Source of the DNA: an uncultured virus (IMG/VR IMGVR_UViG_3300044646_001246) | Taxonomy: Duplodnaviria; Heunggongvirae; Uroviricota; Caudoviricetes | Direction: 5' to 3' (one strand) | IMG/VR virus record: IMGVR_UViG_3300044646_001246 | Length of the DNA stretch: 20,000 bases | Part shown: one piece after another, positions 234 through 6,662 of the stretch | Layout of the letters: every line of letters starts with the position of its first letter | How positions within the stretch are numbered: the stretch's first letter is position 1 | Position numbers and translations under genes: made by a program | The notes under the pieces: generated by a model | Told to the model about the DNA's origin: nothing | Database searches by the model: none | Seen by the model: only the letters and a program-made list of their open reading frames with translations

Positions 234-1634
234 ATGAGCGACAAACCAAACCCCGCCACGAAACCCCTGTTCGGACTGATCGACGGTAAGCCGCTCGAAT
301 GTCCGGTCATCGGATTTAACGGCCCGCTTGGATCCGGCAAGACATTGGCAGCCCTCACACTCTGCCCTGAAGAAACCATTGAGATCGGGATTGAAGACTC
401 CGGCGTGACATACGGAAGCCTTCCAATCAAGCACCGGTTTTCAATGTATAAAGAGGTTATCGCTACCGGTAAGACCATGTATCCGAAGCCGATCGATTGC
501 TTCGAATGGTTCCTCAGCATTTTAGATAAGGTGGCAAAAGACGAACTGAAAGCTCGAGTGATTGTGGTTGACCCGATCACTGACATCCAGAACGGACTGT
601 TGGACTACATCGAAGCCCATGCTGCTGACTTCGGAAAGAGTCCCGCACAGTATGCCAAGGCGTCCGGTCTGTTGTGGGGAGATGCTAAGGCGTTCATGAA
701 GATGACGCTCGGTCGCATCAGTCGCAAGGTTGAGTGCTTCATCTACACCTCGCACATGGGAACAGTGTGGCAAGGTGGGGCTCCAGTGTCGGGCAAGAGC
801 AAGGTGAAGGGGATCGACACGTTTAAGGAGATCGCGAGCCTTGTCGTCCACCTGACACGCGACATTGATCCTCAGACTGGCAAGCAGATTGCAGCGCCGA
901 TCGGAAGCATAGCACCACCACACGGCAAGAGTCGGTTCAGCCGATTCGTTGTGGATGCTGAAGGCAGTTACACACCGGTCCCGATTTTACCACCACGCAT
1001 CGAGCCGTTTACTTGGCAGAAAGTTCGTGAGTACGTCGCCACACCACCGGACTACGCGAAGCTGAAGAAGCACGAAGTCGCTCGGCCGGAAGTGCTGACC
1101 GATGACGACAAGTTGCTGCTGGAAGCTGAAACCACCCGCATGAAGTTGGAGGAAGCTCAGATCCGTCAGGACTTGGCGGACAAGGCAGCGGCAGCAGCAG
1201 CGAGGAATAGTGGCGGGGCGGCGGTTCCGACTGCTGTGGCTGCGGCGATGGGAGCAAAGACTACGACGGCAAGTGCGAAGACGGCCGAGAAGCCTGTTGA
1301 CAAGCCTGTCGAGAAGGCAGCGACGACGGCACCTGTCGAAACCCCACCATTTGAAACGGGCAACAGCACCAGCACTGGCTCCAGTGATCTGGCGAATGAA
1401 TCCCTGATCGAGTTCCCGGCTGAACTGGTTCCTTGGGACCGTGAGAAGTGCGACCGCATCGTCCGTGAACAGATGGATGAAGCTGGCATGACGATGGATC
1501 AGAAGAAGAACGCCGTCAAGAAGCGAGGGGTTGAGAAGCTCGCTGACATGACGGACGCTCAGATCGAGGAACTCCGCAAGGCATTGTGGAACGTGCTGAC
1601 GAAGAGGGCGATGGAAGCCAAGGGAAAAAAGTAA
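234..1634 (+). CDS. Sak4/AAA_24-like P-loop ATPase (phage recombination/annealing protein) with Ala/Thr/Lys-rich linker and small helical C-terminal domain
   Basis: Walker A GPLGSGKT and Walker B-like VIVVDPIT; upstream of SSB-like and exonuclease genes. ATG 234 (MSDKPNP) preferred over the TTG at 42. Confidence 0.75.
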   Translation: MSDKPNPATKPLFGLIDGKPLECPVIGFNGPLGSGKTLAALTLCPEETIEIGIEDSGVTYGSLPIKHRFSMYKEVIATGKTMYPKPIDCFEWFLSILDKVAKDELKARVIVVDPITDIQNGLLDYIEAHAADFGKSPAQYAKASGLLWGDAKAFMKMTLGRISRKVECFIYTSHMGTVWQGGAPVSGKSKVKGIDTFKEIASLVVHLTRDIDPQTGKQIAAPIGSIAPPHGKSRFSRFVVDAEGSYTPVPILPPRIEPFTWQKVREYVATPPDYAKLKKHEVARPEVLTDDDKLLLEAETTRMKLEEAQIRQDLADKAAAAAARNSGGAAVPTAVAAAMGAKTTTASAKTAEKPVDKPVEKAATTAPVETPPFETGNSTSTGSSDLANESLIEFPAELVPWDREKCDRIVREQMDEAGMTMDQKKNAVKKRGVEKLADMTDAQIEELRKALWNVLTKRAMEAKGKK

Positions 1635-1792
1635 CAACGGAATATCACCCGTTCGCATATCGGGTGGTGGCGAAATACGGAGAGGCGGCTGCGGTGGCTG
1701 CGTGTATGGCAGAGTTTGGCTTCCCTCTGCTGCTTGTTGATTGTGCTAAGGAAGCCGAAGCAATTGAACGAAGGTTGAAACGAAATGTCTGA
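1625..1792 (+). CDS. Short ORF in the -1 frame of the ATPase; possible frameshift extension, or independent ~42-aa protein from GTG 1664
   Basis: Open frame fills the gap between the ATPase and SSB genes; its stop overlaps the SSB start (ATGTCTGA 1785-1792); A-AAA-AAG at 1625-1631. Confidence 0.5.
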   Translation, partial: KKVTTEYHPFAYRVVAKYGEAAAVAACMAEFGFPLLLVDCAKEAEAIERRLKRNV

Positions 1793-2408
1793 ATACGAGC
1801 CAGGACAAGACCCATTCTCAGTGAGCGGGTCAACATCAGAAGCCACGAAGGATGATGCCCACAAGGGCGGTGGCGGTGCCGGAGTTGCCAAGCCCGGCAT
1901 GTACCATGTGATGGTTGAGTCTGTGGAATTCAACCCACAGGACAAGACGCCGAACGTGCGTGCGATCATGAAGGTTCTGTCCGGAACTGAAGAGTCCGAG
2001 ATCGACAAGCGAATTTATCATCGAATCTACTTTAAGAAGGCCGACACGGAAGAGAAGGAACAGAAGCGGTTTCTCGCACTGGTCACGTTCCTGTTTGAGT
2101 TCGGCGTGCTGGCTGAATCAGAAGCATTCGGCAAAGAGAACGTCGTTCTGACGAAGGCGATGTTCGAACGCCTCGAAGGCTGTCAGGCTGTCGTCAAAGT
2201 CCAGCTTGAGAAGGCGTCGGAGTACAAGGACAAGGAATCCGGCGAGATGAAGATGGGCAAGGATTCCTACAAGATCCTGTGGAACAACGACGTGTGGAAC
2301 ATCCATCACGAGCATGTAAAGGACGTGCCGAAGGACTGGGCGATTGCAAACTACGCCCCGGCACCACGGACGGCGGATCAGAACGCAGCGGATCTGGCGG
2401 ATATTTAG
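1785..2408 (+). CDS. Phage single-stranded DNA-binding protein-like (DUF669-like OB fold)
   Basis: KPGMYHVMVESVE resembles the PGxYxVxI motif; acidic C-terminal tip (ADLADI); directly after a Sak4-like ATPase. Confidence 0.6.
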   Translation: MSEYEPGQDPFSVSGSTSEATKDDAHKGGGGAGVAKPGMYHVMVESVEFNPQDKTPNVRAIMKVLSGTEESEIDKRIYHRIYFKKADTEEKEQKRFLALVTFLFEFGVLAESEAFGKENVVLTKAMFERLEGCQAVVKVQLEKASEYKDKESGEMKMGKDSYKILWNNDVWNIHHEHVKDVPKDWAIANYAPAPRTADQNAADLADI

Positions 2409-3608: not shown

Positions 3609-3875
3609 GTGGTTGTGTGGTTAGAAATACTTTGGTTTGTGATTCAGGTGGCAATCGTTTGGTGGTTGGCATGGGAGGCGTTTAAGAACAGTGAGCGTGC
3701 GAATGCTCTTGCTAAGTTGGCCAAAGACACGATGGACAACAACGACGATCTGATTGCGGCCAATATGGAACTGCTCGAACAGTTGCAGAAGTACGAGAAG
3801 CATCCGTCGCCATTCGAAAAGCCGTTTACGAATGCACACTCAGGGATGGGAGTGAAGGATAATGTCCAAGGGTAA
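3609..3875 (+). CDS. Small membrane protein (N-terminal TM helix plus coiled-coil)
   Basis: Hydrophobic Trp-rich first ~22 aa; purine-rich RBS-like GAGGGAAGG upstream; overlaps the next gene start. Confidence 0.55.
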   Translation: MVVWLEILWFVIQVAIVWWLAWEAFKNSERANALAKLAKDTMDNNDDLIAANMELLEQLQKYEKHPSPFEKPFTNAHSGMGVKDNVQG

Positions 3876-4848
3876 AGCCGCAGCCGCAGAACGCGATGCT
3901 TCCAGACGATCTGAAGAACTCACAGGAGTCTTTGAATCCGTCCGATGGCAGAACGAAGATGGCACGTACATCATCGGCACGCTGCAATCCGGCCAATCTG
4001 TCAAAGGCAATGCACGCGCGGGCTCATTCATTCGGGGCTGCGAGTACACCTTCGGCGGGTTCTGGGACAGCGGCAACGGAAAGTTCGGCCCGACATTCGT
4101 TTTTAAGACCTGTCAGCCGAAAGCCCCGGTCACGCGTGAGGCTGTTGTTGCCTACCTCATGCGACACTTGGCGGGCACTGGCTGTGGTATCGGTGAAGTC
4201 GGCATCAAGAAGATCATCACTCAGTATGGTCCCGACAAAGCGATTGACACGATCAAGAATCACCCGAAGGACATCGGCAGTTTCCTCGGGCTGGATCTGC
4301 AGAAAGCCATCGACGCGTCGAACACGATGAAGCGGATCGAGAAGTTTGAAACGACTCGCATCCAGCTCACTCAGTTATTCGAGGGGCGTGGCTTTCCTCA
4401 ATCCACAGTGGAAGCCTGCATTGACACGTTCGGCGTGAATGCAGTTGACGCGATCAAGCGAGATCCCTTCACCATGTTGGTTCGTGGGTTTCACGGGTGC
4501 GGTTTCCTGCGAGTGAACGCACTGTATGAGGCACTGAATCTTCCGAAGGCCCGGCTGAAACGCCAAGTCATCTGCATGTGGCACATGCTCACAGAGGGTA
4601 ATGGCTCAGTGTGGTATGACGCAGAGTGGGTTGGCGGAAGACTCGCGTCCATGATATCCAGCGACGTGAAGTTTGTGCGGGCAGTGAAGCTCGGCGTGCG
4701 TGCCAAGTGGCTATCAACCTTCAAATGCCCAAAGACTCGGCGGGTATGGTTGGCCAGTCGTGAGCATGCGGCGGTCGAGAATGAACTGGTTTTGACGTTG
4801 GCAGGATTCATTGATCGAGCGAGTTTACCTTTAGCGGTAGAGGTGTAA
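3862..4848 (+). CDS. RecD2-like helicase N-terminal part (OB-like + HhH domains), no motor domain
   Basis: GIGEVGIKKII HhH-like motif; DPFTMLVRGFHGCGFLRVNAL matches the RecD2 NPYxL..GIGF..AD motif; ends where the motor domain normally begins. Confidence 0.75.
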   Translation: MSKGKAAAAERDASRRSEELTGVFESVRWQNEDGTYIIGTLQSGQSVKGNARAGSFIRGCEYTFGGFWDSGNGKFGPTFVFKTCQPKAPVTREAVVAYLMRHLAGTGCGIGEVGIKKIITQYGPDKAIDTIKNHPKDIGSFLGLDLQKAIDASNTMKRIEKFETTRIQLTQLFEGRGFPQSTVEACIDTFGVNAVDAIKRDPFTMLVRGFHGCGFLRVNALYEALNLPKARLKRQVICMWHMLTEGNGSVWYDAEWVGGRLASMISSDVKFVRAVKLGVRAKWLSTFKCPKTRRVWLASREHAAVENELVLTLAGFIDRASLPLAVEV

Positions 4849-4856
4849 CGTGATCA

Positions 4857-5344
4857 TGGCTATGGAAAAGAAACCGAAACGCAGTCACAAAAAGGGAATG
4901 AGTGGCGGCGGCGAACGCAAGAAGAGAAAGCTCGAGTCATTCCCTGCCACTGGCAACACCAACCGCAGCCGAAAGCCCTGTCAGTCGGATGGCATGTTCA
5001 TCATTCGTCTTATGCGAGCTGTGCGGATTGCCGTGTGTGCGATGCGAAAGATGAAGCACGCACAAGGCATGGGGCTGACTGATCTGTACGAGAAGTTCTC
5101 GGAGGTCAAGCAGCAGTGGGTGGATGATGTTGTCTTCTATCGAATCTGGCCGATGTTTGAGATGGATCAGCCGCTGAACATCCACGTCAAAGACATGATG
5201 CTGGTTGATGCTGAGATGCTGAAAGAGTTCAGCAAGCAGATCGGATTCGTCGCGACGAAGATTGAGTTTGATCGGTTCATGGTGGCAAAAGACAACTACA
5301 AGTTTTACTACGAGATGGACGGCGACCATGCAGACATTGGTTAA
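4857..5344 (+). CDS. Hypothetical protein with basic N-terminus, between the RecD2 halves
   Basis: ORF with GAGGTG RBS-like sequence upstream; its stop overlaps the start of the helicase motor gene; no recognised motif. Confidence 0.6.
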
Positions 5345-6662
5345 TCCGGTGGTAAGTGTTGCGACCGCTGCGACTCTGGAGAAACGGATCGTTCTTACAG
5401 AAGAACAGGAAGCTGCGGCCGATGTGCTGAAGAAGAATCAGATTGCGTTACTGACTGGCGGCCCCGGGGTTGGCAAGACAACAGTGTTCTCGCAAGTCGC
5501 CAAGGCATTTGATCCATACACCACATACTGCTGTGCCCCAACAGGACGCGCAGCGCAGCGAATGTCAGAAGCACTGGCTGAGTCTCGCCTGAGTCTGACC
5601 GCCACCACAATCCATTCGCTGCTCGGTCCCGATCGTAACGGCCACGACAAGAAGGGGTGGGGGTTTAAGCACAACAAGCAGAATCGTCTGCCTGCTAAGA
5701 CGGTCATCGCTGACGAATGTTCGATGGTGGATAACGCCACGTTTAATTCACTCGTGACGGCATTACCTGACGATTGCCGACTGGTGATTATTGGCGACCC
5801 TGATCAGTTACCACCCGTGGGCGTCGGCGCTGCACTGCGTGACATGATCAACTCAGGAGTGATTCCGCACGCAAAGTTGACGAAGGTTCACAGGTTCGCC
5901 GGCCGAATCGCCCACGTCTGCCAGATGATTAAAGAGGGCAAGCGATGGCAGGCTTCACCAGCACTGGACGAAAACCCAAACGCTGGAGAGTTCGGGCCTG
6001 AGAACCTGAAGCACATGGAGCGGAAGACGGCGGGTGAGTGCATCGAGGCGATGGAGCAGGTCATCAACGCACTGGTGAAGAACCGCGGCTATAACCCGCT
6101 GGACGACATCCAGATCCTGTGCAGCCGGAATGACCAGGGGCCACTGAACCGCGTTGTGTTAAACGAACGCCTGCAGAAGATGCTGAACCCCGAAGGCGAG
6201 AGTCTTGAGGGCGTACCCTTCCGTGTCGGCGACAAGATCATGTGCCTACAGAACGGCTACCGTGAATCATTCGCAAGTGACGGGGCTGAGAAACTCGGAC
6301 AGGTCTACGTCGCAAACGGCGAGATCGGCATCGTCACTCAGATTAGCAAAAAGGATGTGCTGTGCAAGATTAACGGCACGTTCATTAAGTTCCCGCGAGG
6401 TGCATGGGACGGGCAGTTGACGTTGAGCTACGCCATCACGGTTTGGAAAGCTCAGGGTGGCGGGTTTCCTGCGTGCATCCACATGATTGACGAAGGCCGG
6501 AACGTGGACAGAAGTCTTGTCTACACCAGTTTGAGCCGAAGCAAGAGGCTGTGCTTCACGATCGGCAAGAAGATGGTGCTGGACAAGCAGTGTGAGACGG
6601 TGTTGTTGGAAGATCGGAAGACGTTGCTGAGTGAGCGATTGAGAGAAAGGGCGATGGTGTAG
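5328..6662 (+). CDS. RecD/RecD2-like SF1B helicase motor domain
   Basis: LTEEQ Q-motif, TGGPGVGKTT, APTGRAAQR, TTIHSLL, DECSMVD, GDPDQLPPVG, FRVGDKIM, NGEIG, YAITVWKAQG, VYTSLSRSK. Start taken as ATG 5328. Confidence 0.9.
   Translation: MQTLVNPVVSVATAATLEKRIVLTEEQEAAADVLKKNQIALLTGGPGVGKTTVFSQVAKAFDPYTTYCCAPTGRAAQRMSEALAESRLSLTATTIHSLLGPDRNGHDKKGWGFKHNKQNRLPAKTVIADECSMVDNATFNSLVTALPDDCRLVIIGDPDQLPPVGVGAALRDMINSGVIPHAKLTKVHRFAGRIAHVCQMIKEGKRWQASPALDENPNAGEFGPENLKHMERKTAGECIEAMEQVINALVKNRGYNPLDDIQILCSRNDQGPLNRVVLNERLQKMLNPEGESLEGVPFRVGDKIMCLQNGYRESFASDGAEKLGQVYVANGEIGIVTQISKKDVLCKINGTFIKFPRGAWDGQLTLSYAITVWKAQGGGFPACIHMIDEGRNVDRSLVYTSLSRSKRLCFTIGKKMVLDKQCETVLLEDRKTLLSERLRERAMV

Follow-up and report, generated by a model that had tools for sequence, protein, structure and literature searches.

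A candidate programmed −1 frameshift would append a three-helix domain to a Sak4-like ATPase in an uncultured virus and its relatives

Results

Genes and features of the window

The DNA analysed here (the window) is a 20,000-nucleotide stretch of an uncultured virus of the Caudoviricetes, IMG/VR record IMGVR_UViG_3300044646_001246. It encodes a Sak4-like ATPase, an SSB, a 3′-5′ exonuclease, a split RecD2-like helicase, an ERCC4 nuclease and a primase-like protein, which make up a phage-type recombination and replication module, with virion-like genes further right. The RecD2-like helicase is divided in the window into an N-part with OB and HHH (3862–4848) and a motor part (5262–6662), with a 164-aa ORF between them; among 16 loci it is split in ten and a single frame in six.

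The ATPase matched Pfam AAA_24 with 31.2 bits against a cut-off of 27. It gave no match to PHROG 124 (Sak4-like), to which eight of 14 distant ATPase relatives matched (best E 8.7e-13). No stop interrupts its frame between the window edge and ATG 234, and the protein may start further upstream. The stretch at 3–233 is Cys-rich and conserved in P0004, P0008, P0014, P0018–P0020 and P0022, and is possibly a second, longer start with a metal-binding N-terminal domain. The last 70 residues were modelled by AlphaFold as a three-helix bundle, for which the top two of 48,161 chains were the lambda Red-beta CTD (6m9k, 57 residues aligned with rmsd 1.6 and Z 7.6; 8tfu, Z 7.2), at 9–10% identity and with Z values that can arise by chance for helical bundles; Foldseek alone was not significant. 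A partner-binding role would fit this domain, because HK620 Sak4 needs the SSB tail (PMC5928155; sources given by PMC number are cited from the parts of their text that were accessible). The assignment of the next gene as a DUF669-like SSB is weak in the window itself (Table 1); among the corresponding downstream proteins of relatives, 5/16 match DUF669, with a best E of 5e-6.

Table 1 Features around the end of the ATPase gene in the window
Feature	Position	Strand	Evidence
Sak4-like AAA_24 ATPase, short form, 466 aa	234–1634	+	Pfam AAA_24 E 2.4e-7
C-terminal three-helix domain of the ATPase, Red-beta-CTD-like	1422–1631	+	AlphaFold pLDDT 89
Possible 5′ SD-like stimulators	1603–1617	+	GAGG and GGAAG, 17 and 7 nt ahead of the heptamer
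Overlapping second heptamer G GGA AAA	1622–1628	+	
Slippery heptamer A AAA AAG	1625–1631	+	ATPase zero frame; strict heptamer in 16/20 −1-ORF loci
−1 frame ORF, 53 aa, three-helix domain without its own start	1631–1792	+	ORF in 22/26 loci, pLDDT 92, strain changes
Zero-frame stop TAA	1632–1634	+	Abuts the heptamer
3′ hairpin, 9-bp stem, candidate stimulator	1643–1669	+	Compensatory pairs, strain change at 1645
DUF669-like phage SSB, acidic tail	1785–2408	+	Weak: DUF669 E 0.042 (below cut-off), PHROG 378 E 0.019

In the ATPase frame, positions 1620–1634 read AAG GGA AAA AAG TAA. A sequence-only reading of the window had placed a −1 frameshift site here, and our re-reading agrees with it on the in-frame A AAA AAG that overlaps G GGA AAA, on the stem (1643–1651 with 1661–1669) that follows the heptamer after 11 nt, and on the upstream GGAAG (1613–1617). 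In the −1 frame no stop occurs from 1547 until a TGA at 1790–1792, which leaves 53 codons beyond the slippery site, as had been claimed. The stop of this ORF was also said to overlap the SSB start codon, which it does not do directly: the ORF and the SSB gene, which starts at ATG 1785, overlap by 8 nt.

Conservation of the small ORF and the heptamer

Scans yielded 52 loci, of which 26 non-redundant ones were kept, the window included; duplicates, the truncated L016, L036, L040 and L047, and the masked pair L037/L046 were left out. The compared ATPases (25 in the tree) are 27–60% identical to that of the window. No relatives were found among 50,697 GenBank phage records or in the first viral and first genome scans, and single-protein scans added only L050. 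Among listed runs, 20/24 contain at least half of the window's words, and these are lake-water metagenomes, three of which could be where the sequence came from. Relatives occur in five genome records, three of them Planctomycetota MAGs, and the ATPase is carried by 1/401 and 4/401 sampled genomes around G001.

The same small ORF lies 3′ of the ATPase stop in 22/26 loci, in the −1 frame in 20 and in the +1 frame in two (L002 and L003), and is missing from L004, L006, L031 and L033. The profile of the first ORF alignment recovered L025, L038, L039, L041 and L045, and L050 was read directly. A strict zero-frame X XXY YYZ heptamer occurs within the last 12 codons of the ATPase in 16 of the 20 −1-ORF loci vs none of the six others (Fisher p 9e-4), and the same search in the two wrong frames gave 1/20 in each. 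At control gene and ORF ends of the same loci, a heptamer was found within 12 codons in 5/156 cases and within three codons in 1/156, a count made on a 23-locus set in which the ATPase figure was 14/17. The motifs are A AAA AAC (nine loci), A AAA AAG (four), and G GGA AAG, G GGA AAC and A AAA AAT (one each), and the loci that carry them are spread over several separated clades of the ATPase tree. Because the loci are related, the p-values overstate their independence. Both the slippery site and the −1 ORF, whose presence in homologs the sequence-only reading had offered as a check, are thus conserved in distant relatives.

From amino acids and gene codon use, the mean chance of a heptamer at these positions is 0.09 (over the 16 loci picked for having one), and in the bodies of the ATPase genes (16 loci) 1/152 KK, KN, GK or GN dipeptides makes a heptamer. 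The heptamer at the ATPase end reflects codon choice and not merely Lys content. One of these four dipeptides stands within the last four residues in 25/27 homologous proteins, despite tails of varying length. Heptamers at gene-body dipeptides are also rarer than codon use at the sites predicts, a possible sign that shifty motifs are avoided. In L005 the heptamer precedes the stop by ten codons, and the overlap contains the conserved Trp-Pro with which the domain begins; a 42-nt tandem duplication (L005:5273–5353), either real or an assembly artefact, spans the A run of its slippery site.

No strict heptamer is present in four of the 20 −1 loci: L015 and L020 have A AAG only, L025 has none, and L045 (G559, reverse strand) carries a free-standing 48-aa extension gene with its own ATG in a TAATG overlap with the ATPase stop. 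From the ATG of L045 and the heptamer-less −1 loci it appears that the domain can also be produced as a protein in its own right. In L003 the ATPase ends CCC TTT TGA (5480–5490) with the extension ORF in the +1 frame, which we take, from prfB-type sites, to be a candidate +1 shifty stop reaching the same fusion. L002 (5225–5296) also has its extension ORF in +1 but no clear shift site; a contig indel is the alternative, and a TCC TTT CGC about 21 codons before the stop resembles a viral +1 motif.

Naturally fused versions had likewise been suggested as something to look for, and none appeared. No fused ATPase-extension homolog occurred among 27 protein matches (256–816 aa), and a profile of 16 extensions run against 134–2000-aa proteins retrieved none at E≤0.01 in a weak search with 8,000 scored.

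Candidate RNA stimulators

The hairpin of the window does not exceed shuffled sequence (z 0.10 over 121 nt and −1.10 over 50 nt, with the 11-nt spacer), and its significance comes from the family, not from the window alone. Across the family, the 50 nt 3′ of the site have a mean z of −2.37 (17 loci) vs −0.25 for 155 controls (p 5e-7). Exceptions are L038 (z +1.0), which lacks a stable hairpin, and L005, L008 and L019 (near −0.7); L004, which has no small ORF, is also strongly folded downstream. Three central stem pairs are C-G, A-U and C-G in the window vs U-A, G-C and G-C in L012, L007 and L008, compensatory changes that occur although the amino acids change. MAFFT alignment failed to register these short hairpins, and the stem pairs were counted on a hand-chosen anchor in five loci picked for a shared stem register, an illustrative count. 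At 1645, a strain change (T>C) replaces a U-G pair of the stem by C-G.

Upstream of the site, anti-SD pairing averages −5.1 kcal/mol (15 loci) vs −3.0 kcal/mol at 686 positions (p 4e-4), at a distance that is not fixed; a search for classic SD cores found none in 10/15 loci. Of the dnaX-type signals that had been proposed, the heptamer and, at family level, the hairpin are supported, and the GGAAG SD lacks a fixed, conserved spacing.

Strain variants and coding constraint

Three of the four lake metagenome runs that were compared cover the junction, with variants from two or three contigs, and none of the three has an indel there. One contig with 19 substitutions spans 1100–2392 without gaps. 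All three substitutions at 1565–1610 are silent in frame 0 and non-silent in the −1 frame, where one creates a stop. Beyond the site, 8/8 substitutions at 1642–1735 fall on third positions of −1 codons, seven of them silent and one changing Glu to Asp. Mismatches in L009, L010, L039 and L041, sorted by position in the −1 codon, number 41/34/117. Coding constraint switches from frame 0 to the −1 frame across the slippery site, and by these patterns the extension peptide is under purifying selection.

The added domain

Counted from ATG 234, the predicted long form has 519 aa. Its extension models as a three-helix bundle (pLDDT 92) that differs from the C-terminal bundle of the ATPase; descent of the extension from that bundle as a paralog was considered and rejected (profile probability 0.6%). 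The extension family has no Pfam match and a weak match to PHROG 2003 in 1/24, and a Foldseek search with its fold returned nothing at E≤0.001 (best structural Z 4.4). C-termini ending in Ile/Val-Pro-Phe, like bacterial SSB tails, are found in L003 and L006 (short form) and in L018 and L019 (long form); in the latter two, this SSB-tail-like end would be carried only by the shifted form.

Weighing the explanations

We consider it probable, at a little under nine in ten, that a programmed −1 ribosomal frameshift yields short and long forms of the Sak4-like ATPase. The two isoforms put forward by the sequence-only reading are supported by the comparison, in which site and ORF are conserved and starts are mostly absent. 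In hand are the site, the ORF, their conservation, the coding selection and the lack of starts, and from these we infer slipping itself and its rate. In a rival reading the small ORF is an ordinary separate gene, translated by coupling or initiated at GTG 1586, at GTG 1664 or at a non-canonical junction codon, and the heptamer is incidental. L045 has an ATG that overlaps the ATPase stop and no heptamer, L001 and L007 have TTG/GTG at the junction, gene callers annotate the extension as a separate gene of 42–71 aa, and GTG 1586 in the window follows a GAGGA (dG −5.7). The annotated starts vary and are probably false. Only 3/22 loci have a start codon between −4 and +5 codons from the ATPase stop, the window being among the 19 that have none; between the upstream stop and a point 12 codons beyond the junction, 7/16 examined loci contain no start codon. 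In strain X12 the change 1568 G>A breaks the GAGGA ahead of GTG 1586, and the −1 stretch past this codon takes a non-silent change while frame 0 stays silent. An independent start at GTG 1664, named at the outset as an observation that would count against a frameshift, is unlikely because this codon has no SD (dG +1.2), and lies inside helix 1 of the extension, which would be cut off, and because relatives mostly lack any start. Furthermore, the motor halves of the split helicases in the same loci begin at ordinary ATG/GTG starts, unlike the extension, and a separate gene leaves the heptamer enrichment unexplained. We regard such a gene as distinctly unlikely.

A frameshift that is real but whose main role is to bring ribosomes to the SSB start, with the peptide secondary, is improbable, though somewhat less so than a separate gene. 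The next start lies within 10 nt of the extension ORF stop in 12/19 loci, six of them with a 4-nt stop/start overlap, and there the coupling of SSB translation suggested by the sequence-only reading is possible. It is not general: gaps of 30–62 nt make it unlikely in 4/19 loci, and strong SD-like motifs precede several SSB starts. In this count the next ORF taken in L025 and L039 does not look like an SSB. A peptide under purifying selection, with a confidently modelled fold, also argues against a secondary role. Transcriptional slippage, in which a base inserted on the A run would fuse the frames in the RNA, could draw on runs of six A in the window and eight in L001 and on the precedent of T. 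thermophilus dnaX (PMC5009743). It is very unlikely: the slippage covered by the same source takes place on runs of about 9 A/T, L007 and L011 (G GGA AAG and G GGA AAC) have three A only, and the motif is bound to the zero frame and followed by a hairpin. Least credible, to the point of being negligible, is a sequencing error or a decayed gene with one frame broken by an indel. Nothing in the window speaks for it, although L002 could be such a case, and the same offset in 20 diverged loci, the covering runs free of indels and the 27 unfused homologs speak against it.

Discussion

Judged by its sequence elements, the mechanism would be the standard bacterial −1 frameshift, with an outcome like that of lambda G/GT and not that of E. 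coli dnaX. The A AAA AAG motif, the 3′ hairpin and possibly an SD-like element are shared with the −1 shifts of E. coli dnaX and IS3/IS911, and the IS repertoire comprises A AAA AAG, A AAA AAC, G GGA AAG, G GGA AAC and A AAG (PMC4066793). Compared with the dnaX and IS signals, the window has a spacer of 11 nt and the SD spacing is not fixed. The term dnaX-like, used in the sequence-only reading, thus suits the motif and not the outcome, since the −1 frame stays open for 53 codons past the zero-frame stop: in E. coli dnaX the shift gives a shorter product of a clamp-loader gene, whereas here it would give a longer product of an unrelated AAA_24 gene. A reversed dnaX arrangement, in which the shift gives the longer product, is on record (PMC5009743).

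Closer parallels are lambda G/GT and the capsid/tail extensions of T3, T7, A2, A118 and PSA, where, as is proposed here, the shift lies close to the gene's 3′ end and produces a longer form. In these phage systems the shift adds a C-terminal domain to a minor share of the chains and is −1 or +1 depending on the phage (PMC5009743); here it would be −1 in most loci and apparently +1 in L003. Unlike the virion assembly and structural genes of the G/GT type, the gene at issue encodes an ATPase for recombination and belongs to a replication module, and its added domain matched nothing known.

The module itself has relatives in HK620 Sak4/SSB (PMC5928155) and Healer Gp64/Gp63 (PMC13687109), and DUF669 is the usual partner of Sak4 (PMC5928155). 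As in those modules, an AAA_24 core-only RecA-like ATPase stands beside a DUF669-type SSB; by contrast, the window ATPase is long, at 466 aa or more, and includes a linker and a bundle like the Red-beta CTD, and the frameshift-linked ORF lies between it and the SSB. The lambda Red-beta CTD (6m9k, in complex with lambda exonuclease, and 8tfu, with an SSB tail peptide) resembles the domain that precedes the shift and not the extension.

Nearly all conserved frameshifts on record in phages concern tail chaperones and structural proteins, and here we report a well-supported candidate in a DNA recombination gene. Tail chaperones account for 2,397 of 2,476 annotated SEA-PHAGES frameshifts (PMC10885494), and the tail chaperone frameshift was the only one found in the PMC3711429 supplement as far as accessible. 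Our literature search, which covered few subscription papers, found no paper in which a Sak4 or annealase gene is said to contain a frameshift; the word 'recombinase' is absent from the examined text of PMC5009743, 'recombin' from that of PMC10885494 and 'frameshift' from that of the Healer paper (PMC13687109). Five prophage clusters in the PMC4066793 supplements may bear on the novelty of a frameshift in a recombination gene.

Under a programmed frameshift, most ribosomes would finish the ATPase at TAA 1632 and release the 466-aa form. A fraction of them would stall at the 3′ hairpin and the neighbouring stop, let both lysine tRNAs slip back one base on A AAA AAG and read the 53 further codons, so that the 519-aa form would carry its extra domain right after the Red-beta-CTD-like domain. 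The slippery site would in this way set a fixed minority of long subunits. What the minority does is speculative. The extra domain may be an adaptor, a reading we favour only tentatively and at rather less than even odds, by which a few subunits of an annealase oligomer would dock another recombination or replication partner. With similar reserve, we suggest that deeply diverged phages might keep a minority long annealase by several routes, the extension being a new adaptor in mixed oligomers; the routes could be the −1 heptamer, the A AAG tetramer, a shifty stop for +1 and, in a single lineage, a free protein made by coupling. This would amount to a recoding switch, shared by the whole family, in phage homologous recombination.

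Sak4/DUF669 modules have recently been tied to repair after CRISPR cleavage (PMC13687109, as far as accessible). The natural series of heptamers, hairpins, a +1 site and a coupled start offers material on which rules of recoding can be tested beyond E. coli, and the conserved fusion points to a folded domain whose dose seems to matter. The adaptor reading, if true, would place a new three-helix domain behind a Red-beta-like partner-binding domain, and the mixed oligomers would then connect annealing with a further component of the replication machinery, as the counterpart in recombination of tau/gamma and G/GT.
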